A program made the translations under genes and the position numbers. A stretch of 40,574 nucleotides of DNA from an uncultured Candidatus Saccharibacteria bacterium (GTDB taxonomy: Bacteria > Patescibacteriota > Minisyncoccia > Phycocordibacterales > JAKAEA01): the NCBI GenBank assembly GCA_964467325.1, contig CAYXSG010000002.1:1-40574 (forward strand), written 5' to 3'. The notes beneath the pieces were generated by a model that was not told where the DNA came from, did not search any database, and worked only from the letters and a program-made list of their open reading frames with translations. Positions 98 to 40,494 of this stretch are shown here, piece after piece; positions within the stretch are counted from its first letter, which is position 1; every line of letters begins with the position of its first letter.

Positions 98-1555
98 TTA
101 CATTATACCCGAAGCCGCTTCAAACTGTTTACCGATTGTGAACAGCGCGTCTTCCCTGCCTGACGGCGCCGTGAACTGAATGCCGAGCGGTAAAGCTTTG
201 CCTTCTCTTTTGGCAAAACCAGACGGAATGGAAATCGCCGGCAAGCTCGTAATATTGGCTGAGACCGTGAAAATATCGGCGAGATACATGGCGAGCGGGT
301 CTGAAGATTTTTCGCCGATTTTGAAAGCTGGAATTGGCGAGGTCGGCGTCAAAATCAAATCCACTTTTTTGAAGGCATTTTCAAAATCCTGCCGAAGTAA
401 GTTGCGGACGACGTTGGCTTTGTTGTAGTACGCGTCGTAGTAGCCGGTGGAAAGCACGTACGTACCAAGAATAATTCGACGGCGGACTTCGGTCCCAAAA
501 CCAGCGCGGCGCGTTTCCAAATAATCGTCCAGCAAATTCTTGCCGTCTTTGTGCAAGCCGTATTTCACGCCGTCAAAACGCGCGAGGTTGGATGACACTT
601 CCGCCGGCATGAGCACGTAGTAAACCGCGAGCGCGTAATCAATGTTTGGCAATTTAATATCCACAATTTCATGGCCGAGCTGCTTGAGTTTTTCCAAAGA
701 CGCTTTGAAATTCGCCATCACATCTTCATCCACGCCTTTGGCCATGAAATCATATGGCACCCCTATTCGCATTTTCCCCTCCCCCATCTCCTCTTTTTCC
801 AAAGAGGAGTGGCGAGTCTTCGAGCCGAGGTGTTCGCTACTGGTCGAATCCATCCTGTCCCAAACCCTAATCGCCTTAAAAATTATCTCAGCATCCTCCA
901 CTGTCTTTGTAATTGGTCCGATTTGATCCAAAGAAGAAGCCATGGCCATTAAGCCCGAGCGCGAAACTGCGCCGTATGTCGGCTTGAGTCCAACCAAACC
1001 GCATAAGCTGGCCGGCTGACGAATGGAACCGCCAGTGTCGGAACCAAGCGCTGCGAGCGCGCCACCCATCGCAACAGCCGCCGCCGAACCGCCGGAAGAA
1101 CCGCCCGCAACGCGCGTCGTATCAAAAGGATTTTTCACCACGCCAAACGCCGAGTTTTCGGTTGAACCGCCCATGGCAAATTCGTCCATGTTGGTGCGCC
1201 CAAGGAAAACCGGCTCGGATTTTTTCAGTTTGGCAATCACAGTCGCGTCATAAGTCGCTTTGTAATTTTCGAGCATCTTGGACGCCGACGAAGCAACTCG
1301 GCCTTTGATTAAAATATTGTCTTTAATCGCAAGCGGAATGCCGGTCAGCATGTCGGCTTTACCCGCTTTGATTTTCGCATCGGCGAGCTTGGCTTGCGTG
1401 TCAATGTCGGCAAAAACTTCCAAGTAGGCATTAATTTCCGGATTGTGTTTTTCAATTTCTTTTTTGTAAGCCTGCGCGAGCTCCACAGCCGAAAAATCGC
1501 CTTTTACCAAGTGCTCATGCGCTTTTTTGATTGTAAGAGTTTTCAAATCAATCAC
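98..1555 (-). CDS. gatA: Glu/Asp-tRNA amidotransferase subunit A
   Basis: 485-aa ORF with the amidase signature (GGSSGGSAAAVA, KDNI). It overlaps the gatC stop by 4 nt and carries an in-frame repeat arm at 786-836. Confidence 0.95.
   Translation of the reverse strand: MIDLKTLTIKKAHEHLVKGDFSAVELAQAYKKEIEKHNPEINAYLEVFADIDTQAKLADAKIKAGKADMLTGIPLAIKDNILIKGRVASSASKMLENYKATYDATVIAKLKKSEPVFLGRTNMDEFAMGGSTENSAFGVVKNPFDTTRVAGGSSGGSAAAVAMGGALAALGSDTGGSIRQPASLCGLVGLKPTYGAVSRSGLMAMASSLDQIGPITKTVEDAEIIFKAIRVWDRMDSTSSEHLGSKTRHSSLEKEEMGEGKMRIGVPYDFMAKGVDEDVMANFKASLEKLKQLGHEIVDIKLPNIDYALAVYYVLMPAEVSSNLARFDGVKYGLHKDGKNLLDDYLETRRAGFGTEVRRRIILGTYVLSTGYYDAYYNKANVVRNLLRQDFENAFKKVDLILTPTSPIPAFKIGEKSSDPLAMYLADIFTVSANITSLPAISIPSGFAKREGKALPLGIQFTAPSGREDALFTIGKQFEAASGIM
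786..836. repeat. single arm of the palindromic element family, in frame inside gatA
   Basis: Perfect hairpin CTCCTCTTT-TTCC-AAAGAGGAG followed by the tail TGGCGAGTCTTCGAGCCGAGGTGTTC. The tail matches the arm at 39151-39210 at 26/28 positions by hand alignment. Confidence 0.75.
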
Positions 1556-2463: not shown

Positions 2464-4491
<2,028 letters not shown>

Positions 4492-4501
4492 CTACCCTAA
4501 A

Positions 4502-5017
4502 TTAGTAGTTGACTTCAAGGCCACGTTCGAGACGCTGCGGATCTGCCGTGTTGCAAGTGTTATAGCCGCGCGACTCTATCCTTGTTTTCAATTCATGCGC
4601 ATTATTTAAATATTTTGAAATTGTAATGCTAGCACAGGAATGATCACTAGCATTAAAAGCATTTAGGTTAAATTTTGAAACGATCGCAGAATAACTATCA
4701 ACAGTGCCATTTGAAGTAGTAATGGTGGTGTGCGGCACATTGTTGCAGTTAAAACTTGGCACGCTTTGTGGCGCTTGCAAAACTGCCGGCAATGCACTGG
4801 CGTCCACAAAAGCTGACTCCACTTTCTGATCCGCATAGAGCGCGCATTCAAGACCAGTGTCGGCCACGTAAAGCGCTTTTTGGGAATCTTTGCCAGCCAC
4901 CGCGAGCGTAGTTTGCTTCAGCGTAATGGAAAAAAGGCTGTACGCAATGGAAATGAGCGTGGCGGCAATCATGACACCAATAAGTAGAGCAAAACCTTTG
5001 TTGTTGGATTTAGTCAT
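4502..5017 (-). CDS. minor pilin-like protein (PilX-like, no Glu at +5)
   Basis: N-terminus MTKSNNKGFALLIGVMIAATL has a short basic leader and a hydrophobic helix. It is the last gene of the minor-pilin run. Confidence 0.55.
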   Translation of the reverse strand: MTKSNNKGFALLIGVMIAATLISIAYSLFSITLKQTTLAVAGKDSQKALYVADTGLECALYADQKVESAFVDASALPAVLQAPQSVPSFNCNNVPHTTITTSNGTVDSYSAIVSKFNLNAFNASDHSCASITISKYLNNAHELKTRIESRGYNTCNTADPQRLERGLEVNY

Positions 5018-6776: not shown

Positions 6777-7592
6777 TTAAATTCCAAAAACACTGTGAAG
6801 GCTGGCCACATCAAAAGCGAAAAAATACGCGAGGGCGAAACCGAGGATGAGATACGGCGCGAACGGAATCTCGCTCTTCATTGTAAGCTTTAAACCTTTG
6901 CGTTTCAATTGACCGAAAGCCAAGAGGAAGATACTTACGAGCGCGCCAATCCAAAAAGCCATGAACACCGCCGAAACGCCAAGGCCGAGGCCGAGCATCC
7001 AGCCGATGCCGAGCGCGAGCTTGCCGTCGCCGAGACCGAGCCAGCGGCCGTCGGAAACCAGCCACAAAAGATAGAACGGCAAGAATAAAATCGGACCGGC
7101 GAGCAGAGTAAAAATAAAAATATTGAGCGGCTGAACCGGTACGAAAATTAGAACTCTGATTAAACCAAGGACCGCGAAAGTATAGACTGCGCCGTTGGGA
7201 ATGATTTTGTGGCGCAAATCATAAACGCCAATTACAATAAGCAAACACCAAGCCACCACCGCGAGCACTGCTTCAAGAAGCAAAACTGGCGTCAAAGTTT
7301 GGATCAAGCTTGAAAAGTGGAAAAACAGCGCAACAAAAACCAAACTAGTAGAAAGTTCCACTAAAGGATATTGCCAAGAAAGTTTCGCTCGGCAATGCCG
7401 ACACATGCCTTTTTGCAAAACGAAGCTCAAGAGTGGCACCAGTTCATACCAAACTAAAGGCTTGCCGCAAGTCATGCATGCTGAGCGGCCGGTAACTACG
7501 CCGCGGCCGGTGTTGTAGCGGAAAATCACCACATTTAGAAAACTGCCGATGATCAAACCCAGACAGAAAACAAAAATGGCAATGAGAAACAT
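6777..7592 (-). CDS. pilD: prepilin peptidase (A24 family)
   Basis: Has CxxC...CxxC, multiple TM helices and the catalytic Asp motifs (VYDLRHK, GLGDGKL). ATG 7592 overlaps the upstream pilin stop as TAATG, and the track's N-terminal extension is non-homologous. Confidence 0.9.
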   Translation of the reverse strand: MFLIAIFVFCLGLIIGSFLNVVIFRYNTGRGVVTGRSACMTCGKPLVWYELVPLLSFVLQKGMCRHCRAKLSWQYPLVELSTSLVFVALFFHFSSLIQTLTPVLLLEAVLAVVAWCLLIVIGVYDLRHKIIPNGAVYTFAVLGLIRVLIFVPVQPLNIFIFTLLAGPILFLPFYLLWLVSDGRWLGLGDGKLALGIGWMLGLGLGVSAVFMAFWIGALVSIFLLAFGQLKRKGLKLTMKSEIPFAPYLILGFALAYFFAFDVASLHSVFGI

Positions 7593-8113
7593 TATGGTTT
7601 TGAAACTCGGTAAGTGTAGCCGGCAGGATTCAAGCCGGAATTCGCCGTCCAGTTGGTAATCGCGCAAGTGTTGGTCAAATCCACATTGGCATTTTGACTT
7701 TCCAAGTTTGCACCCAAACAGTATGAAGAGCCATCTGCTGAAGAATAGCCGTAAACATAATTTGCAGAGTTAAGCGGATCAGTTAGTGTTGACGGCAAAA
7801 AACCAAACTTTGTTAATTTATCAGCCATGTCAGCATAAGTGCCCGGTGAGCTTGCAGTATTTGGGCAACCGTAGCCTGAGTTTGCGTCGCCAGTTAAGGC
7901 ATCGCCAGCGCCAGTTGGATAATTGCCACATCGGTTGAGATAGGCCGCGAGCGCGAGCTGAATGTTTGAAATATCGGAAATTCTTTTCTGATCGCGCGAG
8001 CGCGCTTTCGCCGTCCCTAAGTTGGCCAAGACAATGCCGGAAAGAATCCCAATAATTGCAATTACCACCATGAGCTCAATCAACGTGAACCCGTTTTTGG
8101 ATTTTAAAGTCAT
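7592..8113 (-). CDS. type IV pilin
   Basis: [24 protein letters not shown] is a class III signal peptide. The start is taken at ATG 8113. Confidence 0.85.
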
Positions 8114-8148
8114 GAGGATATTATAACATATCAACTTACTCACAAATC

Positions 8149-8269
8149 ATAGCACCTCGGCTCGCCGACTCGCCACTCCTCTTTGTCTAAAGAGGAGATA
8201 CTTGCGCGCAAGTTCTTTTCCCCTCTTCAGACGAAGAGGGGTGCCATTCTTATGGCGGGGTGTTCTGAA
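8149..8269. mobile_element. full-length palindromic MITE/REP-like element with a degenerate left end
   Basis: Two inverted arms, each with a hairpin (CTCCTCTTT-GTCT-AAAGAGGAG and CCCCTCTTC-AGAC-GAAGAGGGG). The right end is GGTGTTCTG. The element ends 5 nt from the stop of pilin 8274-8723. Confidence 0.75.
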
Positions 8270-8273
8270 AAAC

Positions 8274-8723
8274 TTAAGGAGTTGGCACGACGCACTGTAC
8301 GCCGTCGTTGTAGTTGCCTGGGTCGGTACCAGCTGTCAAAGTTGTACCAATTTCACCAGAAAAACTAGTACTATCAATACAGAAATATTGACCGTCGCCC
8401 AAGAGATCATAGGCTGTGTAAGACACGTAGTCAGGAGAAACCGTACACACCGGAGGATTACCAGTTTGATTCTGAACAGCAGAAAGTAAATTCATAACAG
8501 TTGGATCAGAGCACGCGTCTTGATATGAGTTTCTAGAATTATCACTATTATAACTTTCCATATTAGACCGCAAACTTGTCATGCTTGCTTTTGCACTAGC
8601 ATCTTTAGCTCCAGCACGAGAACTACCCAATGACGCCAAAACTACAGAAGCTAATATACCAATAATAGCAATAACAACGAGCAATTCTATTAAGGTGAAG
8701 CCTTTTTTATTTATCCTCATCAT
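8274..8723 (-). CDS. type IV pilin
   Basis: [24 protein letters not shown] is a class III signal peptide. Confidence 0.85.
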   Translation of the reverse strand: MMRINKKGFTLIELLVVIAIIGILASVVLASLGSSRAGAKDASAKASMTSLRSNMESYNSDNSRNSYQDACSDPTVMNLLSAVQNQTGNPPVCTVSPDYVSYTAYDLLGDGQYFCIDSTSFSGEIGTTLTAGTDPGNYNDGVQCVVPTP

Positions 8724-8744
8724 TATTTATTATATATTAAATTA

Positions 8745-9248
8745 TTATAGACAAGCTGTGGCCGCGGCAAGTATTGCTACACCCTCTTGTTTACTCTGTC
8801 CTTTACTATCAACACACCACCACCCACCATTTTTAAGCGGCGCCTCCATAACCCATGCAGTCACTGGCGCACCAGCTGTATCGTGGCAAGTAACATGGGT
8901 TGCGTCACCCGCCAACGCTGGAGGATTTGCAGAACTTATTTGACTAGCGGAAACTGCTGAAGAATTCAAAACTCCTTTCATTATACCCGGTCCGGCAACT
9001 CCACCAAAACCACCAGAAGTTACTGCTGCCGCGCAAACACCACCGTAAGAGTTGCTGTTTGCTCCGGCATAAATTTCCCCCTGTGCTCGTGCGCCAGAAA
9101 GTTGAGCTTGGGTTGCAGCGTCAGAACCCTTATTGCGAGCTGTACCGAGTGAAGCCAGCACAACTGCCGACAAGATACCAATGATTGCAATTACGACTAG
9201 TAATTCAATCAATGTAAAACCTTTATGCTTATTAATTCCTAGTTTCAT
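8745..9248 (-). CDS. type IV pilin (major-pilin-like paralogue 2)
   Basis: [26 protein letters not shown]. Its C-terminus ...SKQE..A..ATACL is shared with 9371-9853. Confidence 0.9.
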   Translation of the reverse strand: MKLGINKHKGFTLIELLVVIAIIGILSAVVLASLGTARNKGSDAATQAQLSGARAQGEIYAGANSNSYGGVCAAAVTSGGFGGVAGPGIMKGVLNSSAVSASQISSANPPALAGDATHVTCHDTAGAPVTAWVMEAPLKNGGWWCVDSKGQSKQEGVAILAAATACL

Positions 9249-9310
9249 AATGAATACATTATATATTATAAAAATAAAAGAAAGATTGAGTTATCCACTC
9301 ACAAAAACAA

Positions 9311-9330
9311 AAACCACCCTCAGGTGGTTT
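9311..9330 (-). terminator. rho-independent terminator after pilin 9371-9853
   Basis: Stem AAACCACC/GGTGGTTT with a 4-nt loop. On the minus strand it is followed by TTTTGTTTTTGT. Confidence 0.6.
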
Positions 9331-9370
9331 TTGTTTCAAGAGAATCTTGAGAAAAGAATCCAGCTATAAC

Positions 9371-9853
9371 TTATAGACAAGCTGTGGCAGGAGCAAGCAT
9401 GGCTGCGGCTTCTTGCTTGCTTTGTCCAGAACTATCAGCACACCAGAACGAGCCTGAAACACTCTTTAGAGGAGCTTCCAAAACCCAAGCACTCGTGGCT
9501 GCTGCTGCAGTATCATGACAAGTAACTTTTGCTGCCGCTCCAGCAAGTGCTGGTGGATTAGCTGAACTAACTTGAACAGTACCACCAGAAGAAGCAGCTG
9601 CGCCAGCTGTAATAGCAGCAAAACCATTGTTTGCGGCTGTAGCAGCACAAACGCCGCCGTAAGAATTATTGTTCGCTCCAGCATAAATCTCACCTTGAGC
9701 ACGAGCGCCATCGAGTTGGGCTTGTGTCGCTGCGTCAGCACCCTTTGAGCGAGCCGTACCCAAGCTTGCTAATACCACTGCTGACAAGATGCCGATGATG
9801 GCGATGACGACGAGAAGTTCGATGAGAGTGAAACCTTTATTTAGTCTTTTCAT
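9371..9853 (-). CDS. type IV pilin (major-pilin-like paralogue 1)
   Basis: [23 protein letters not shown]. It is the first pilin after pilC and has its own terminator. Confidence 0.9.
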   Translation of the reverse strand: MKRLNKGFTLIELLVVIAIIGILSAVVLASLGTARSKGADAATQAQLDGARAQGEIYAGANNNSYGGVCAATAANNGFAAITAGAAASSGGTVQVSSANPPALAGAAAKVTCHDTAAAATSAWVLEAPLKSVSGSFWCADSSGQSKQEAAAMLAPATACL

Positions 9854-9998
9854 TATTTTATAAATTATTAACTATTAATTTTTTGACTTATATCAATCGA
9901 CCTAACCGCATAAGCGGTAGTCGCTATATGCCTATGCGTCCTATTATATCTCCATTTGGCTCGTTGCGTGCAAGAAATATTGTGGATAACTTTGAAAT

Positions 9999-10114
9999 CA
10001 GAACACCCCCAGCCCCCTCTTTGATTAAAGAGGGGGGAAGAGTAGAAATAAATTAGCAAGTCGGTTCTCCTCTTTAGACAAAGAGGAGTGGCCTTCTGAG
10101 GCCGAGGTGTTCTG
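9999..10114. mobile_element. full-length palindromic MITE/REP-like element
   Basis: Terminal inverted repeats CAGAACACCCC...GAGGTGTTCTG and two hairpin arms. It is flanked by the 3-bp direct repeat AAT (9996-9998 and 10115-10117) and abuts the pilC stop. Confidence 0.8.
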
Positions 10115-10116
10115 AA

Positions 10117-11322
10117 TTAAATTGAGTTCGCGACGTTGTAAATTGGAATCAAAACGGAGGCGAGAAGCACGCCGACGCCGAGACCGAGAAGGACAATCAT
10201 GACTGGTTCAATGAGGCCGACGAGCGTGTCCACGGCGTTGATAACTTCGCGCTGATAAAACTTGGAAAGCGTTTTCAAAATGTTGCCGAGCTCGCCGGTT
10301 TCTTCTCCAACTTTAATCATTTGAATCATGATACTGGGAATTTCGTGGAACTGGACAAGCGAATCGGAAAGCGAACTACCACCTTTTACCGACTCCACCG
10401 CTTTGCCTAAAATGCGTTCGTAAACTGCGCTGCCGACCACCGACTGCGTCACTTCCAACGCTTTAATCATGGGAATCCCGGAGATGAGCATGGTGTTCAT
10501 GTTGTCGGCGATGCGTGCGAGGTAGAGCTTGCGGAAAAGATTGCCGACGTACGGCGTGGTGATTTTCAAATCATCAAACCAATTCCGGCCGCCTTCGGTG
10601 CGGATGTATCGGACAATGAAAAATCCAGCGATGATGAGACCAACAATCAGGAACAAGCCGTAACTGACAAAGAAACTCGATAGGCCAATGACAATTTGAG
10701 TGTAAATCGGGATTGGCTGGCCGGAATCGGTGATGATGGAAGCGATTTTCGGGATGACCACCGTAAACATAAGAATCATAACCGCCATGAAAACGACAAT
10801 GATGAAAGTTGGGTAAACTAGCGCGTTCTTGGCTTTGGAAGTGACTTCATAGCTACGATCAAGATAGTCGGCGAGATAGTTGAAAATTTCGTCCAGCTTA
10901 CCCGACTCTTCGCCGGAACGCACCATGTTGACATAAAAATTGGAGAAAATTTGCGGATGTTTTTCCAGCGCTTTGGAAATGGAACTGCCAGCTTGCAAAT
11001 CGGTCGCCACTTCGGAAAGTGCATCTCTGAAAATTGGATTTTCCGACTCCGCGCCAAGCAAACGAAAAACGCGAAGCGCCGAAACTTGCGCCGCAAAAAG
11101 AATGGCCATTTGCCGAGAAAGAATGACGACGTCTTTGTTTTTTATGTGATTGAAAAAAGAAATGTTCCGGTCAAAAACCGAGCCTTCTTTCGGCGTATCA
11201 ATTTTGGAAATGATGAGGCCACGGCGCTGCAGCGAGTTGATGGCAATGTCCACATTGATGGCTTCAATTTCGCCCTCGCGCATCACTCCGGTATTGTCTA
11301 TGGCTTGATATTTGAAAATCAT
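10117..11322 (-). CDS. pilC: type IV pilus platform protein (GspF/PilC family)
   Basis: 401 aa with duplicated T2SS-F domains and 3 TM segments. It lies next to pilT and pilB. Confidence 0.95.
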   Translation of the reverse strand: MIFKYQAIDNTGVMREGEIEAINVDIAINSLQRRGLIISKIDTPKEGSVFDRNISFFNHIKNKDVVILSRQMAILFAAQVSALRVFRLLGAESENPIFRDALSEVATDLQAGSSISKALEKHPQIFSNFYVNMVRSGEESGKLDEIFNYLADYLDRSYEVTSKAKNALVYPTFIIVVFMAVMILMFTVVIPKIASIITDSGQPIPIYTQIVIGLSSFFVSYGLFLIVGLIIAGFFIVRYIRTEGGRNWFDDLKITTPYVGNLFRKLYLARIADNMNTMLISGIPMIKALEVTQSVVGSAVYERILGKAVESVKGGSSLSDSLVQFHEIPSIMIQMIKVGEETGELGNILKTLSKFYQREVINAVDTLVGLIEPVMIVLLGLGVGVLLASVLIPIYNVANSI

Positions 11323-19711: not shown

Positions 19712-19724
19712 ATAATTTTATTTG

Positions 19725-19811
19725 CGGAGACGATGGGATTCGAACCCATGAAGCCGGTTAAGGCTTACCTCGTTAGCAGTGAGGCGCTTTCGACCACTCA
19801 GCCACGTCTCC
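19725..19811 (-). tRNA. tRNA-Ser (anticodon GCU)
   Basis: Cloverleaf GGAGACG/CGTCTCC, anticodon loop CUGCUAA, a long variable arm (AAGCC...GGCTT), T-loop GGTTCGAATCC and discriminator G. CCA is not encoded. Confidence 0.9.
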
Positions 19812-23266: not shown

Positions 23267-23339
23267 GCACGTGTAGCTCAGTTGGTAGAGCAGGCGTCTT
23301 ATACACGCCCGGTCCTAGGTTCGAATCCTAGCACGTGCA
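23267..23339 (+). tRNA. tRNA-Ile (anticodon UAU)
   Basis: Acceptor GCACGTG/CACGTGC, D arm GCTC-AGTTGGTA-GAGC, anticodon stem GGCGT/ACGCC with loop CTTATAC, T arm CTAGG-TTCGAAT-CCTAG and discriminator A, followed by CC. Confidence 0.85.
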
Positions 23340-23342
23340 CCT

Positions 23343-25769: not shown

Positions 25770-26180
25770 GGGGATGATCGGCCTAGACAGGAGTTCATCT
25801 TTTAGCTGTGCAAAGCGGAGCACCATTAACTCCTAAATCTGATGGAAACTTAAGTGCAACCAAAACTGCACGCGCTAAAGTTTCTCCATTCTTCGGAATG
25901 AAGGACTTTGCGTTCGCCTACGTTCCAGCGTAAGCCGGACCTAGACGACATTCTTCGCGCGCTCGCCCGACTCGCGCGTCTGAGTGTAATATCGTCGGAC
26001 TAGATTGCGAAACGGCACTGATTCGCTTTCGAAACAAAAGTGCTCGGTGATTTGGGATTCTGTTCGTCCCATACCCATTTCATTTAAATCTGTTTAATAA
26101 ACAGGAGAGACATTCTAAGCTTTGTAGATTCATCTAAAATTTTCTCTTGCACCGCGGTTCAATTCCGCGCATCTCCACCA
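25770..26180 (+). ncRNA. ssrA: transfer-messenger RNA (tmRNA)
   Basis: 5' GGGGATGATCGGCCTAGACAGG and 3' CGCGGTTCAATTCCGCGCATCTCCACCA. The acceptor stem has the G3:U70 pair, the T arm is present, CCA is encoded, and the gene is adjacent to smpB. Confidence 0.9.
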
Positions 26181-39046: not shown

Positions 39047-39074
39047 TAAAAACATCTCCCGCCCGCCAAAAATT

Positions 39075-39210
39075 CAGAACACCTCGACCTCAGAAGGCCA
39101 CTCCTCTTTATCAAAAGAGGAGATAAGAACTTACACAAGAGTTTGTTAGCAAGTCGGAATCTCCCCCTTAGACAAAGGGGAGTGGCGAGTCTGCGAGCCG
39201 AGGGGTTCTG
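39075..39210. mobile_element. full-length palindromic MITE/REP-like element
   Basis: Terminal inverted repeats CAGAACACCTCG...CGAGGGGTTCTG and two hairpin arms. It is flanked by the 3-bp direct repeat ATT (39072-39074 and 39211-39213) and lies 3 nt from the secY stop. Confidence 0.8.
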
Positions 39211-39213
39211 ATT

Positions 39214-40494
39214 TTAGTACTCCCTCATGGAAAGCTGAGCTTCGGTTTTTTTGATGAGGTCGATGACCACGGAGACGACGATGAGCAGAGCGGTGCCGCC
39301 GATGGTGAACGAAGCGATGCCAGAGAAAGCGCGAACAATGAGCGGCAGAATGGCGATGACGCCGAGAAAGAGCGCGCCGAACGCAGTGAGGCGCGTCAAG
39401 ATTTTAGAAACGTAAATGGCAGTCGACTGGCCCGGTCGGACGCCTGGAATGAATGCGCCGTTTTTCTGAAGATTTTCAGACATCTGGTTTGGATCAAAAG
39501 TGACAGCCGTGTAAAAATAAGTGAAAGCGAACACGAAGATGAAATAGAGTGCGGCGTAAATCCAACCGTTTGGATTCGTGGCAGCAAGAACCCACTGCGA
39601 AATGCCGGCGAGCAGAACGCTTGAGGCAAATCTCTTGGCGATGAATTGGAAAATGATTTGCGGGAAGACGAGAATGGAAAGTGCGAAGATAATTGGAATG
39701 ACGCCGGACTGATTCAAACGGAGCGGAATGTAGGTGGAAACGCCGCCGTAAATTTTGTTGCCGCGCACGCGCTTGGCGTACGTGACCGGAATCGGTCGTT
39801 CAGCTTCGGTAATAACCACAACGGCGTAAGTGACCACGAGAATGCCAATTATCAGCGCTAGATAAACCGGGATTTGCGAAGGATCAAAAGAATAGAGCGT
39901 CTGGCTGGCAGAAGTTGGCAATCTGGAAACAATACCAGCGAAAATAATGAGCGACGCGCCGTTGCCCACGCCGAATTCGCTGATGCGTTCGCCGAGCCAA
40001 ACCAGAAACACCGAGCCCGCGGTAATTAAACTCAAATTGCGAATCGTTTCAAACGCTGTGAGCGAGCTGATGACGCCTTGATTTTGAAGCAAAATTAGAA
40101 AGCTCCAGCCTTGAATGATTGCGAGTGGCACGGTGAGCATTCTGGAATACTGGCCAAACTTTTTGCGACCATATTCCCCTTCTTCCTGATACATGGCTTT
40201 GAGCCGCGGCGAAAGCAGAGTGGCGAGCTGCATGATGATGGTAGAAGTGATGTATGGACCAACGCCGAGCATGACGAGCGAAAGTTGAGAAAGACTGCCG
40301 CCGGTAAAAATATTCAAAAGACCGAGAAGTTGGTTATTAGCAAAAAATGCGTGAAGCTCAGCCGTATCAATACCTGGCACCGGAATCGCCGCAAGCAATC
40401 TGAAAGCCGCCAAAATCCCGAGCGTGATTAAAACTCGCTTGCGCAAAGTTGTGTCCGCAAAAACCAACCGCATTTTTTCTAAGAAAGCGTTCAT
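39214..40494 (-). CDS. secY: preprotein translocase subunit SecY
   Basis: 426 aa with 10 TM helices and typical SecY motifs. Its ATG overlaps the rplO TGA. Confidence 0.97.
   Translation of the reverse strand: MNAFLEKMRLVFADTTLRKRVLITLGILAAFRLLAAIPVPGIDTAELHAFFANNQLLGLLNIFTGGSLSQLSLVMLGVGPYITSTIIMQLATLLSPRLKAMYQEEGEYGRKKFGQYSRMLTVPLAIIQGWSFLILLQNQGVISSLTAFETIRNLSLITAGSVFLVWLGERISEFGVGNGASLIIFAGIVSRLPTSASQTLYSFDPSQIPVYLALIIGILVVTYAVVVITEAERPIPVTYAKRVRGNKIYGGVSTYIPLRLNQSGVIPIIFALSILVFPQIIFQFIAKRFASSVLLAGISQWVLAATNPNGWIYAALYFIFVFAFTYFYTAVTFDPNQMSENLQKNGAFIPGVRPGQSTAIYVSKILTRLTAFGALFLGVIAILPLIVRAFSGIASFTIGGTALLIVVSVVIDLIKKTEAQLSMREY

Follow-up and report, generated by a model that had tools for sequence, protein, structure and literature searches.

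The eight repeats on this contig are genuine insertions, each a copy of a small DNA module whose unit is a single arm of ~50-60 nt and not a palindromic pair. Each arm is a class II potential intrastrand triplex repeat, since its third strand obeys the triad rules of the antiparallel purine motif; the triplex itself is predicted from the sequence. The arm family flanks genes encoding DUF559 nucleases, and we consider it probable that the arm is a copied intrastrand-triplex DNA module on which a DUF559 protein would act in trans. On this contig, the arms represent selfish or neutral insertions rather than genes or regulatory RNAs.

Eight arms at five loci

A nhmmer profile made from the arms was searched over the window, meaning the whole 40.6-kb stretch of DNA that was analyzed (40,574 nt). 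Exactly eight arms were recovered, with E-values of 2e-19 to 7e-10, in agreement with the initial annotation, which had counted eight arms at five loci. They are arranged as three inverted pairs and two solo arms. The solo arms had been counted earlier without being placed; they lie in frame inside gatA and ligA, and are read through. The features are as follows, with the nhmmer matches in brackets.

784..835, + strand: solo arm in gatA (match 786-835(+), E 7e-14); 9/9 Watson-Crick pairs, 8/8 triads; Y strand 788-796, R strand 801-809, connector 810-826, third strand GAGGTGTT at 827-834; the gatA ORF is 98-1555, - strand, and the arm is translated in frame as ...SEHLGSKTRHSSLEKEEMG...
2681..2736, + strand: solo arm in ligA (match 2686-2740(+), E 1e-17); 8/8 triads; lead GCAAGT 2681-2686, Y 2689-2697, R 2702-2710, mini-hairpin GGCCG-TCTG-CGGCC, third strand GGGGTGTT at 2726-2733, then CTG; the ligA ORF is 2464-4482, - strand, and the arm is translated in frame in the linker ahead of the BRCT domain
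8148..8205, - strand: left arm of the pair 8148-8267 near the pilin gene (match 8144-8200(-), E 1.4e-16); 9/9 pairs, 7/8 triads; third strand degenerate (GAGGTGCT), outer end CATAGCACC
8200-8213: center of the pair 8148-8267, palindrome ACTTGCGCGCAAGT
8208..8267, + strand: right arm of the pair 8148-8267 (match 8217-8270(+), E 1.4e-15); perfect triplex motif; lead GCAAGTTCTTTT, Y CCCCTCTTC, R GAAGAGGGG, mini-hairpin GCCAT-TCT-TATGGC, third strand GGGGTGTT, then CTG; ends 6 nt short of the pilin stop codon 8274-8276
9999..10040, - strand: left arm of the pair 9999-10114 near pilC (match 9995-10037(-), E 7e-10); 9/9 triads; composed of CCCCCTCTTT-AATC-AAAGAGGGGG-CT-GGGGGTGTT, the connector being just CT, without mini-hairpin
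10053..10114, + strand: right arm of the pair 9999-10114 (match 10065-10118(+), E 2e-19); 8/8 triads; lead TTAGCAAGTCGG, Y CTCCTCTTT, R AAAGAGGAG, mini-hairpin GGCCT-TCTG-AGGCC, third strand GAGGTGTT, then CTG; ends 2 nt short of the pilC stop codon 10117-10119
39075..39134, - strand: left arm of the pair 39075-39210 near secY (match 39071-39125(-), E 1.6e-17); 8/8 triads; mini-hairpin with one G.T pair on the arm strand (GGCCT...AGGTC)
39146..39210, + strand: right arm of the pair 39075-39210 (match 39158-39214(+), E 3e-15); 8/8 triads; linked triple change with Y CTCCCCCTT, R AAAGGGGAG and third strand GAGGGGTT; ends 3 nt short of the secY stop codon 39214-39216

As had been described, each of the three intergenic elements consists of two inverted arms, head to head, around a short center. 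The outer ends are CAGAACACC...GGTGTTCTG in the pair 9999-10114 (DNA fold z -6.8) and CAGAACACC...GGGGTTCTG in the pair 39075-39210, and are degenerate in the pair 8148-8267 (CATAGCACC...GGTGTTCTG; DNA fold z -4.9). The position of the pairs right after stop codons was correctly noted; it is within 0-6 nt, the distances found being 2 nt for pilC (10117), 6 nt for the pilin gene (8274) and 3 nt for secY (39214).

We also used a generic triplex finder, a sequence-agnostic search for the order Y, R, third strand in which perfect motifs are counted. It returned 6 motifs in the window, every one of them an arm, against an average of 0.11 in 100 dinucleotide shuffles, so the arm pattern is not due to chance. 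The single-strand DNA folds lie far below shuffled controls (z -3.8 to -6.8). The earlier reading of a real dispersed repeat under structural constraint is borne out.

A class II triplex predicted in the arms

Class II is defined by the order Y, R, reverse-Hoogsteen on one strand (PMC4666352). The arms carry a pyrimidine strand (Y, CYCCTCTTT), a 4-nt loop, a purine strand (R, AAAGAGGRG) and a connector, mostly with a GC mini-hairpin of variable sequence; the third strand (GRGGTGTT) comes last. This 5'->3' class II order was found in 8/8 arms, 6 of which were recovered without mismatch by the generic finder. The third strand obeys the antiparallel purine-motif rules, with G lying on G.C pairs and either A or T on A.T pairs, and the triads fit at 8-9 of 8-9 positions in seven of the eight window arms and at 7/8 in the other one. 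Changes among the window arms are linked across all three strands, as in CTCC/GGAG/GAGG versus CCCC/GGGG/GGGG. The arm 39146-39210 carries the linked triple change T>C, A>G, T>G and keeps 8/8 triads although one position is altered in all three strands. The 9-bp stem and its compensatory T-A/C-G changes between arms are real, as is the single C.A mismatch reported for this last arm (in 39161-39207).

With a stem of 6-15 nt, at most one mismatch and an antiparallel third strand, the window arms have the triads of class II. Their loops depart from the 1-6 nt that the ITxF search allows for both, loop 1 being 4 nt and loop 2 being 15-17 nt in seven arms, with a 2-nt loop 2 only in the arm 9999-10040; this is a limit of the search tool, not of the fold.

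The initial annotation had divided the arm into a lead, a hairpin and a tail of ~30 nt, and its hairpin stands. The lead TTAGCAAGTCGG is restricted to two arms (10053-10064 and 39146-39157), other arms having GCAAGTTCTTT or GCAAGTTT, and no recognizable lead was found in the gatA arm (786-835) or in the arm 9999-10040. The tail proved to be composite, with a second, variable hairpin followed by the third strand, a conserved G-rich stretch that shows covariation with the first stem. The second hairpin is missing from the arm matched at 9995-10037 (9999-10040), so the mini-hairpin is a dispensable connector. The ends described as terminal inverted repeats are indeed inverted, but they consist of the predicted third strand plus CTG. 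Two other accounts of the tail, pairing with the 5' strand and a simple direct repeat of the purine strand, were rejected because the register is wrong and the antiparallel triplex rule fits instead. A G-quadruplex was also rejected, there being just two G-runs per arm.

Orthologous sites in related genomes

The initial annotation had suggested a search for empty sites in relatives. Arms were absent from related Paceibacteria contigs at three of the four sites compared, namely secY-adk, pilC-pilin and gatA. The secY-adk spacer is 158 nt long in the window versus 24-49 nt, without arms, in L197, L198 and L199, and in L197 and L199 a canonical terminator lies at the position of the window's element. 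In the closest relative, L116, the pilC-pilin spacer is ~115 nt shorter and has no arm, and GatA is 474 aa long without the arm versus 485 aa in the window, a difference of 11 aa. The arm-bearing stretch of GatA is length-variable (14 aa in L116, 23 aa in the window). The arm at the fourth site, in ligA, is shared with L116 at the same site (L116 11753-11803); most other LigA homologues are armless and have a shorter linker. A clean insertion at ligA or gatA is not reconstructable, the proteins being only ~5-11 aa longer with the arms, and the solo arms are tolerated in frame in the LigA linker and in the length-variable stretch of GatA. Arm density is 8 in 40.6 kb on this contig versus 1 in ~85 kb in the relatives.

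The arm family in other phyla

Further copies, which the initial annotation had proposed to seek outside the window, were found in many bacterial phyla and not in Patescibacteria alone, as well as on one contig assigned to an archaeal MAG (Aenigmarchaeota). Arm-bearing genomes include Parcubacteria GW2011_GWC2_38_7, Planctomycetia S19M_St_30, Cysteiniphilum litorale and Candidatus Francisella endociliophora. The pattern of the first genome scan was loose, and about half of the 114 loci among the matches listed are chance. Viral contigs gave 1 match in 2.9 million, so the arms are not phage-borne.

The family follows the consensus (A)ATT-CCCCTCYT-loop-ARGAGGGG-TG-[hairpin]-C-GGGGTGKT. Among 253 different arms taken from many phyla, 742/819 of the variable positions are consistent with G*G.C, A*A.T or T*A.T, against a mean of 578 and a maximum of 608 in 1000 trials with shuffled tails, a comparison in which shared descent can let related sequences outscore shuffles. 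The four main covarying haplotypes are CCCCTCC-GGGGTGGT (n=104) and CCCCTCT-GGGGTGTT (n=72), with CCCCTTC-GGGGTAGT (n=14) and CCCCTTT-GGGGTATT (n=11) being rarer. Whether A or T lies on an A.T pair depends on the position, which lineage rather than structure could explain. It is from these pairing rules alone that the triplex fold of the family is predicted. The mini-hairpin comes in 147 different sequence versions in which pairing is preserved, and its stems reach 4 bp or more in 50% versus 5% of shuffles. Its loops are triloops in 164/211 cases, chiefly C-GAA-G (91) and C-GCA-G (30), which are the hyperstable GNA loops of DNA. The asymmetry between G.T and A.C in the mini-hairpin is weak (18 versus 10).

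The statement that the repeat could not be assigned to a named family holds for its sequence, which is distinct and absent from Rfam, but not for its kind, which is that of the known class II BoxC/PIT/TM repeats. The Rfam comparison comprised 4227 covariance models and covered the window at gathering thresholds, positions 7900-10400 in a permissive scan, and 18 arm-bearing loci; the only matches were to tmRNA, tRNAs and rRNA, none of them at an arm. A literature search for the strings GGGGTGTTC and AAGAGGGGTG gave chance matches only.

The initial annotation had taken the whole palindrome for the unit of a MITE. In its classical form, this would be a 115-135-bp palindrome bounded by CAGAACACC/GGTGTTCTG terminal inverted repeats, moved by a DDE transposase encoded elsewhere and leaving a 3-bp duplication, which we find quite improbable. 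The size below 200 bp and the empty sites in relatives would suit it, as would the inverted ends and the A/T-rich 3-mers at two pairs. Terminal inverted repeats within the ~300 bp of a MITE are present in the three pairs (CAGAACACC/GGTGTTCTG or close variants) but not in the solo arms, and solo arms also occur in the other genomes and metagenomes sampled. There, paired arms are found head-to-head (25), in tandem (20) and tail-to-tail (18) at similar rates, which speaks against a palindromic unit, and the supposed terminal repeat covaries with the internal stem as a third strand. The 3-bp flank repeats, described earlier as compatible with a target-site duplication, are poor evidence for one. 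The three pairs are flanked by AAT/AAT, ATT/ATT and AAT/AAA, so that the two sides of the third do not match, and AAT/AATT is near self-complementary. Since TGAWTT comes after the arm in Planctomycetia, WOR-3 and other Patescibacteria as well, the AAT at the flanks probably belongs to the arm or is a favored context. As noted before, the element is non-autonomous within the contig, with no Pfam transposase match among the 20 window ORFs scanned. No transposase was seen beside arms in the 57 listed genome loci or in the DUF559 loci inspected in detail, and no transposase-coding parent element with the same ends was found in the window or the arm-bearing loci, DUF559 being the sole recurrent arm-bounded gene.

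A role at the RNA level is not favored either. The arms would then be mainly bidirectional terminators or 3' stabilizing hairpins placed after stop codons and selected as mRNA structure; this is improbable, even if the three pairs all lie 2-6 nt past a stop codon, the predicted hairpins are strong and a canonical terminator occupies the place of the window's element in the secY-adk spacer of L197 and L199. A search for intrinsic terminators (a GC-rich stem with a direct T/U run) gave 3 matches versus a shuffle mean of 3.4, which is chance level, and no arm stem has a clean T run; the only arm-derived match, at 10090-10103 on the minus strand, has the pyrimidine tail ACTCCTCTTT. Against mRNA structure also stand the lack of an Rfam match, the solo arms within genes, the mixed orientation of arms relative to neighboring genes in other genomes, and the GNA triloops in place of GNRA or UNCG tetraloops. 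The covariation of the third strand has no RNA explanation, since RNA reportedly does not form triplexes of the purine motif (PMC4666352).

Association with DUF559 genes

Clustering of the neighboring genes showed that DUF559 alone recurs beside arms, the other neighbors being ordinary genes. The DUF559 gene is small and encodes a Vsr-like endonuclease of the PD-(D/E)XK type, and to our knowledge a Vsr-like nuclease is not a known transposase. In 80 metagenome loci picked by DUF559 protein patterns only, 71 have an arm within 250 nt of the gene. The density of generic-finder motifs is 4.85/kb within 200 nt of a DUF559 gene versus 0.20/kb past 500 nt. Orientation is specific: the nearest arm upstream of DUF559 is on the + strand in 44/53 loci, and the nearest arm downstream is on the - strand in 55/60. 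Within a cassette, the triplex haplotype is common to both arms in 26/34 cases versus 14.5 expected, but the mini-hairpins differ in 32/34. An arm-DUF559 cassette is also present in a Parcubacteria genome, with arms of the GGGGTGTT type seen in the window, and on cyanobacterial plasmids distant DUF559 genes are bordered by another triplex family. Not every DUF559 gene shows the link, as the E. coli locus examined has no triplex motif within 700 nt. The DUF559 literature held nothing on flanking repeats, and no report of the arm-DUF559 link was found.

Cassettes within coding sequences have an arm on each side. Methylase and HsdR homologues from different organisms carry cassettes at the identical site. 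No constant target duplication or direct repeat was found around the cassettes. Long direct repeats were considered as target duplications in L032 and L206 and rejected, being missing at most loci; L206 has a 90-nt duplication of the start of the host gene.

In the window, no DUF559 was found by Pfam among the 20 ORFs scanned, five of which had no Pfam match at all, and a DUF559 profile built from three sequences gave no match in any six-frame ORF of 40 aa or more. Since neither the contig nor 85 kb from close relatives shows a DUF559 gene, the presence of a partner in this genome is an assumption.

These data point to a model where one arm would be one copy of a ~50-60-nt DNA module. On one strand it would form a hairpin, with the downstream G/T/A-rich segment binding to the purine strand as well, giving a class II (purine-motif, antiparallel) intrastrand triplex, with the variable GC-rich mini-hairpin connecting duplex and third strand. 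Copying would take place at the DNA level, the recognized or functional form would be the folded single strand and not RNA, and the DUF559 nuclease, whose gene would lie elsewhere in the genome or have been lost, would start the copying in trans by nicking or homing-type repair. Such an arrangement would parallel that of REP sequences and the RAYT enzyme. The window carries gene-less copies only, three head-to-head pairs past stop codons and two solo arms. The DUF559 nuclease gene may be the long-missing enzyme partner of the triplex module. More tentatively, arms and DUF559 could together be an unrecognized selfish element across bacterial phyla, possibly also archaea, in which the nuclease recognizes the folded hairpin-plus-triplex module and drives its copying; the module would then invade intergenic spacers and coding sequences, being read in frame in the latter.

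The co-location of arms and DUF559 would also follow if the nuclease gene just homes into pre-existing arms. DUF559 would then be a free-standing homing endonuclease gene that uses arms or arm pairs as landing sites, and gene-less arms would owe their copying to something else, spreading otherwise or persisting as hot spots. Arms do outnumber the gene, which is found at only 4 of the ~57 arm-bearing genome loci among the matches listed, and its placement between arms varies, with tails inward in Bacteroidota-type loci and heads inward in Synechocystis L200. The repeated occupation of the same methylase and HsdR sites in different organisms would fit as well, and the duplication at L206 is what recombination-based homing predicts. 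We still judge homing unlikely, as the two arms of a cassette share a haplotype above chance, cassettes within genes have arms on both sides where none would be expected beforehand, and no other enzyme candidate was found.

If copying by DUF559 is true, the orphan BoxC/PIT/TM class would gain its first enzyme partner and intrastrand triplex DNA a natural role. The DUF559 link, being strong and orientation-specific, makes an enzyme partner of triplex repeats testable. Modules in frame inside the essential genes ligA and gatA, and whole cassettes inside restriction-modification genes, bear on the tolerance of small-genome bacteria to selfish DNA and on how unusual peptide inserts are annotated. 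In practical terms, the message for this contig itself is modest.

Comparison with known repeats and nuclease genes

The BoxC/PIT/TM triplex repeats have been known since the 1990s and fold in vitro and in vivo. We know of no enzyme, mobility mechanism or function assigned to them, and in having no known function or mobilizing enzyme they are like the arms. The arm family is a separate sequence family within this class II kind of E. coli and cyanobacteria. It shares with BoxC/PIT/TM_ECO (Hoyne et al. 2000; Holder et al. 2015, PMC4666352) the dispersed, multi-copy ~40-60-nt repeats, the order Y, R, G-rich reverse-Hoogsteen on one strand, the G*G.C, A*A.T and T*A.T triad rules, the occurrence as singles and palindromic pairs, and copy numbers that are very different between close relatives. 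Triplex formation by TM_ECO/BoxC has been shown by CD, NMR and in vivo DMS (PMC4666352). The arms differ in sequence, the TM_ECO/BoxC pattern CCCTCNCCC-N3-6-GGGNGAGGG-N3-GGGNGAGGG having 0 matches in the window, and in loop 2, which is a 9-16-nt mini-hairpin versus 3 nt in TM_ECO. Because this loop exceeds the 1-6-nt limit, the family lies outside the ITxF search and could not be detected by the published searches with that limit; it is a new variant family with a mini-hairpin in loop 2, conserved in many phyla including Patescibacteria, beyond the Proteobacteria and Cyanobacteria. TM_ECO is always intergenic in E. coli and no link to mobile elements was found for it (PMC4666352), unlike the arm family, which is tightly tied to DUF559 genes and has two window arms in frame inside genes.

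The REP/REPIN-RAYT systems resemble the arms in anatomy: a short hairpin unit whose 5' foot is conserved (ATT in the arms), occurring as singlets, inverted doublets and tandem clusters, mainly extragenic, whose non-autonomous copies far outnumber a single-gene partner that is itself repeat-flanked, and for which folded single-stranded DNA is probably the form that matters. Arms could accordingly be read as REPs and inverted pairs as REPINs, mobilized by a RAYT (an IS200/IS605-like Y1 transposase), but this is very hard to credit. No Y1 transposase was found next to arms in the 57 listed genome loci or in the window, including its 20 ORFs searched by Pfam, and the sole recurrent arm-flanked gene encodes DUF559, a Vsr-like PD-(D/E)XK nuclease, in place of a HUH/Y1 transposase. 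REP families are species-specific, whereas the arm family keeps its sequence across phyla, and REPs have no counterpart of the third-strand segment.

Rickettsia palindromic elements (RPE) are, like the arms, small palindromic repeats without their own transposase, and the in-frame gene insertion by which they are recognized is seen in the gatA and ligA arms as a resemblance of behavior only. At 100-150 bp and confined to Rickettsia and relatives, they are not expected to be related to the arms in sequence; on taxon and sequence, membership of the arms is unlikely. We know of no triplex-type covariation or nuclease partner reported for RPEs. Correia/NEMIS MITEs resemble the arm pairs in being <200 bp long, gene-adjacent, with inverted ends, and missing at orthologous sites of relatives. 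The arms differ in that their unit is half of the palindrome, that they have no parent IS element or reliable target-site duplication, and that the inverted ends of a pair are internal structure and not a transposase-binding TIR.

The Vsr-like homing endonuclease genes (I-Bth0305I family; PMC2677866, PMC3239194) resemble the DUF559 cassettes in having a small Vsr/PD-(D/E)XK nuclease gene at conserved sites of host genes, often those of restriction-modification, sometimes with a duplication of host sequence. The papers describing them deal with split inteins and phage introns, not with an arm-DUF559 element. The DUF559 family is distinct from the EDxHD endonucleases, and its cassettes contain neither intron nor intein; they differ further in having structured arms at both ends, with in-frame read-through being possible.

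Eight inserted arms in the window

The repeats are arms of ~50-60 nt, each made of a pyrimidine strand, a loop, a purine strand, a connector (mostly a mini-hairpin) and a G-rich third strand, the tail. A repeat scan and an nhmmer profile made from the arms uncovered exactly eight of them (E 2e-19 to 7e-10), and inspection found the sequence to be as the initial annotation described it.

Arms found by nhmmer in the window
786-835, plus strand, solo arm inside gatA
2686-2740, plus strand, solo arm inside ligA
8144-8200, minus strand, arm in pair 8148-8267
8217-8270, plus strand, arm in pair 8148-8267
9995-10037, minus strand, arm in pair 9999-10114
10065-10118, plus strand, arm in pair 9999-10114
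39071-39125, minus strand, arm in pair 39075-39210
39158-39214, plus strand, arm in pair 39075-39210

The count agrees with the initial annotation, where the two solo arms had been left unplaced. Both lie in frame and stop-free within long minus-strand ORFs: one is translated in GatA as ...SEHLGSKTRHSSLEKEEMG..., and the other encodes part of the linker immediately before the BRCT domain of the NAD-dependent ligase (LigA). The other six make up three inverted pairs, G-rich tails outward (8148-8267, 9999-10114 and 39075-39210). These pairs do end close to stop codons as first noted, at 6 nt (pilin gene), 2 nt (pilC) and 3 nt (secY), respectively. Folded as single-stranded DNA, pairs and single arms were well beyond shuffled controls (z -3.8 to -6.8).

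Four tandem pilin-like paralogues with a conserved N-terminal segment occupy 7592-9853, downstream of pilB, a response regulator gene, pilT and pilC, and the gene order is the same in L116, a syntenic JGI contig. Pair 8148-8267 lies between two of these paralogues and pair 9999-10114 between the block and pilC. RNA genes noted in the window are a tmRNA (25770-26180, tag peptide ARAKVSPFFGMKDFAFAYVPA), a tRNA-Ile with anticodon TAT (23267-23341) and a tRNA-Ser(GCT) (19724-19811).

LigA and SecY homologues placed the contig among Paceibacteria/Parcubacteria, the best relatives showing ~74-79% protein identity, and empty orthologous sites were found there. In L116, the ligA arm is present at the same site, gatA has no arm (GatA of 474 aa versus 485 aa in the window) and the arm-free pilC-pilin spacer is ~115 nt shorter. 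The secY-adk spacer is arm-free in three relatives (44, 24 and 49 nt) and measures 158 nt in the window, 136 nt of it being the element 39075-39210. One arm was found in ~85 kb of relatives versus eight in the 40.6 kb window. The LigA linker is short in most of 60 homologues, with arm-like peptides at the corresponding position in a few.

In the L116 pilC-pilin spacer (4613-4790), the position of pair 9999-10114 is occupied by GGAATACC-A-GGTGTGTT. This looks like a fusion of the element's two outer ends, and could be a remnant after interior loss or a chance likeness. In the secY-adk spacers of two relatives, L197 (11297-11340) and L199 (11279-11327), the place of the element is taken by a canonical hairpin-plus-T-run terminator; no such terminator was found in the window's spacer.

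The arms obey a triple-helix rule

The compensatory changes first seen in the 9-bp stem were recovered, and the G-rich tail was found to covary with the stem as well. Aligned in opposite directions (tail 5' to 3', purine strand 3' to 5'), the two segments correspond by the rule of the antiparallel purine-motif triple helix, in which each G.C pair takes a G in the tail and each A.T pair a T or an A. The window combines CTCCTCTTT/AAAGAGGAG with tail GAGGTGTT, CCCCTCTTT/AAAGAGGGG with GGGGTGTT and, as a variant, CTCCCCCTT/AAAGGGGAG with GAGGGGTT; one arm with five G's has tail GGGGGTGTT and just CT as connector. All triads fit in seven arms, and 7/8 in one. With all sources pooled (253 distinct arms), the rule holds at 742 of 819 variable positions versus a mean of 578 and a maximum of 608 with tails shuffled among arms (1000 trials), although part of this excess may be shared descent because the shuffles ignore relatedness. 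Despite this caveat, independent linked changes are seen at four positions, and the four main triplex haplotypes covary cleanly. A sequence-agnostic finder using the rule only gave six matches in the window, all of them arms, versus a mean of 0.11 in dinucleotide shuffles. Only one of the two complementary strands can follow the purine-motif rule applied here, so that the predicted fold would be strand-specific at neutral pH.

The connector hairpin occurs in 147 distinct sequences with pairing retained; stems of at least 4 bp are found in 50% versus 5% of shuffles, and 164/211 loops are triloops, mostly C-GAA-G and C-GCA-G. GNA loops are a hallmark of very stable DNA mini-hairpins, not RNA. 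The alternative that the arms act as an RNA terminator fails at least one direct test.

A new family of a described kind

Holder et al. 2015 (PMC4666352), reached through a paper search with the motif in its cyanobacterial form, defines the class II intrastrand triplex motif by a pyrimidine, a purine and a reverse-Hoogsteen domain, the same order as in the window arms. The E. coli repeat TM_ECO, identical to BoxC and to the PIT elements described in Hoyne et al. 2000, forms such a triplex by CD, NMR and in vivo DMS; it was counted 3610 times in 262 proteobacterial genomes, and cyanobacteria have many G/C-rich motifs (PMC4666352). The same paper notes palindromic pairs and a link to genomic instability, reports no association with transposons, phages or plasmids, and states that RNA does not form purine-motif triplexes. 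Its motif search admitted loops of 1-6 nt only, so that arms with a 15-17-nt second loop fell outside it. As the TM_ECO pattern had no match in the window, whose arms differ from TM_ECO/BoxC in sequence family and in having a hairpin in loop 2, we classify the element from its sequence as a BoxC/PIT/TM-type intrastrand triplex repeat, a new sequence family and structural variant that the window, from a Patescibacterium, has as gene-less copies. The initial view that it fits no named family does not hold for the kind (PMC4666352), though the sequence family is distinct. Our interest lies less in the window itself than in what it led to, a new variant family with a loop-2 hairpin that earlier searches could not detect, and a strong association with a nuclease gene.

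A cross-phylum pattern scan of one genome per species, in which about half of the listed loci are chance matches, gave the same arm architecture, among the matches listed, in Saccharibacteria, another Patescibacteria MAG, Planctomycetia, Flavobacteriaceae, Chitinophagaceae, Ignavibacteria/Kapaibacteria, Cloacimonadota, Atribacteria, WOR-3, Verrucomicrobiota and the gammaproteobacterium Cysteiniphilum. Several of the listed genomes have multiple copies, some at contig ends. The family consensus is (A)ATT-CCCCTCYT-loop-ARGAGGGG-TG-[variable hairpin]-C-GGGGTGKT. At genome loci, arms are mainly intergenic with no fixed orientation to neighbor genes. Among 2.9 million viral contigs, only one had the motif, and the Rfam search suggested initially matched no family at the arms of the window or of loci from other genomes. 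Because pairs occur head-to-head (25), tandem (20) and tail-to-tail (18), the repeat unit is the arm and not the palindrome first proposed. The classical reading as a MITE moved by a DDE transposase fails at least one direct test; the arm is the unit, and no Pfam transposase was found among the 20 window ORFs scanned, as the initial annotation had it. The repeats are confirmed and their earlier interpretation is partly supported.

Direct tandem arrays with a period of ~42-50 nt occur in Flavobacteriaceae and Planctomycetia (L013 1268-1357; L036 2665-2897; L041 1-780; L102 2291-2391), with a constant triplex core and units differing only in the connector mini-hairpin. Atribacteria copies (L014, L043, L046, L051, L061 and others) have a P1 palindrome without loop, CCCCTCTT|AAGAGGGG. 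Their additional flanking segments, AGGGGAA...TTCCCCT, could pair with strands of the same arm and so suggest alternative folds. In a Saccharibacteria MAG (L103 934-1057), a tail-to-tail pair lies ~360 nt upstream of the 23S rRNA gene 5' end.

Association with a DUF559 nuclease gene

ORF clustering at arm-bearing genome loci uncovered one recurrent family, a ~130-aa DUF559-domain protein with a Vsr-like endonuclease fold (nearest solved structure 3HRL). Among the best 80 metagenome loci, located by peptide patterns only, 71 had an arm within 250 nt of the gene. A generic triplex finder gave 4.85 motifs per kb within 200 nt of the gene versus 0.20 per kb beyond 500 nt. Because the nearest upstream motif is mostly on the plus strand (44/53 loci) and the nearest downstream one on the minus strand (55/60), the usual layout of this cassette is arm, gene, inverted arm, with tails toward the gene. 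Its two arms share a triplex haplotype in 26/34 cases (14.5 expected), and their connector hairpins differ in 32/34. The analysis shows the arms to be inserted, structured DNA modules obeying the triplex rule, of a cross-phylum family that flanks DUF559 genes.

Both Parcubacteria GW2011_GWC2_38_7 (protein 63% identical) and one contig assigned to an Aenigmarchaeota (archaeal) MAG carry this cassette, its arms being of the GGGGTGTT type seen in the window. Synechocystis and Pseudanabaena plasmids carry more distant DUF559 genes, and there another triplex family, CCCCTCTCCC...GGGAGAGGGG-CTG-GGGGTGAGGG, flanks the gene. At a Neisseria locus, four motifs lie 190-600 nt downstream, and the one E. 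coli locus examined has none within 700 nt. In the window, neither Pfam (20 ORFs scanned) nor a three-sequence DUF559 profile (six-frame ORFs) found the gene. The arm family is strongly associated with this Vsr-like nuclease gene, a link that is unreported as far as our literature search shows, no paper connecting DUF559 to triplex repeats having been found.

We propose that the arm fold would form on single-stranded DNA, where the DUF559 nuclease would recognize it and start copying; the window copies, on that premise, would be non-autonomous relatives of the cassette, comparable to REPs versus RAYT. A REPIN/RAYT system itself fails at least one direct test. Sites after stop codons and in protein linkers may be where a compact genome tolerates insertions; terminator-like sites may also be preferred, given the terminator that L197 and L199 carry next to secY. 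With the loop-2 hairpin family and its nuclease association, the origin and spread of these orphan repeats become testable.

Cassettes inside host genes

Several whole cassettes lie in frame and stop-free inside restriction-modification genes, with arms translated as linker-like peptides, as for the window's gatA and ligA solo arms.

In-frame cassettes in restriction-modification genes
L071 (1-900)
L138, L139, L164: methylase
L148, L170, L191: HsdR
L144: HsdS-like

Homologous genes have the cassette at the same site in different metagenomes; in HsdR this site lies just before the GSGKS helicase motif. On the Aenigmarchaeota-assigned contig (L206), an N6/N4 methylase gene has the cassette at its 5' end, with ~90 nt of the host gene start duplicated on either side (3001-3092 and 3617-3708), so that the nuclease ORF and the methylase share their first ~30 codons. 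This duplication and the shared insertion sites favor the main rival to copying by the nuclease, namely that its gene only homes into arms without copying them. Around one cassette (L032), a 19-bp direct repeat, CA(C/G)TGATAAGATAGACGAT, not general among the other cassettes, lies at 7128-7146 and 7714-7732 and includes the stop codon of the upstream gene.
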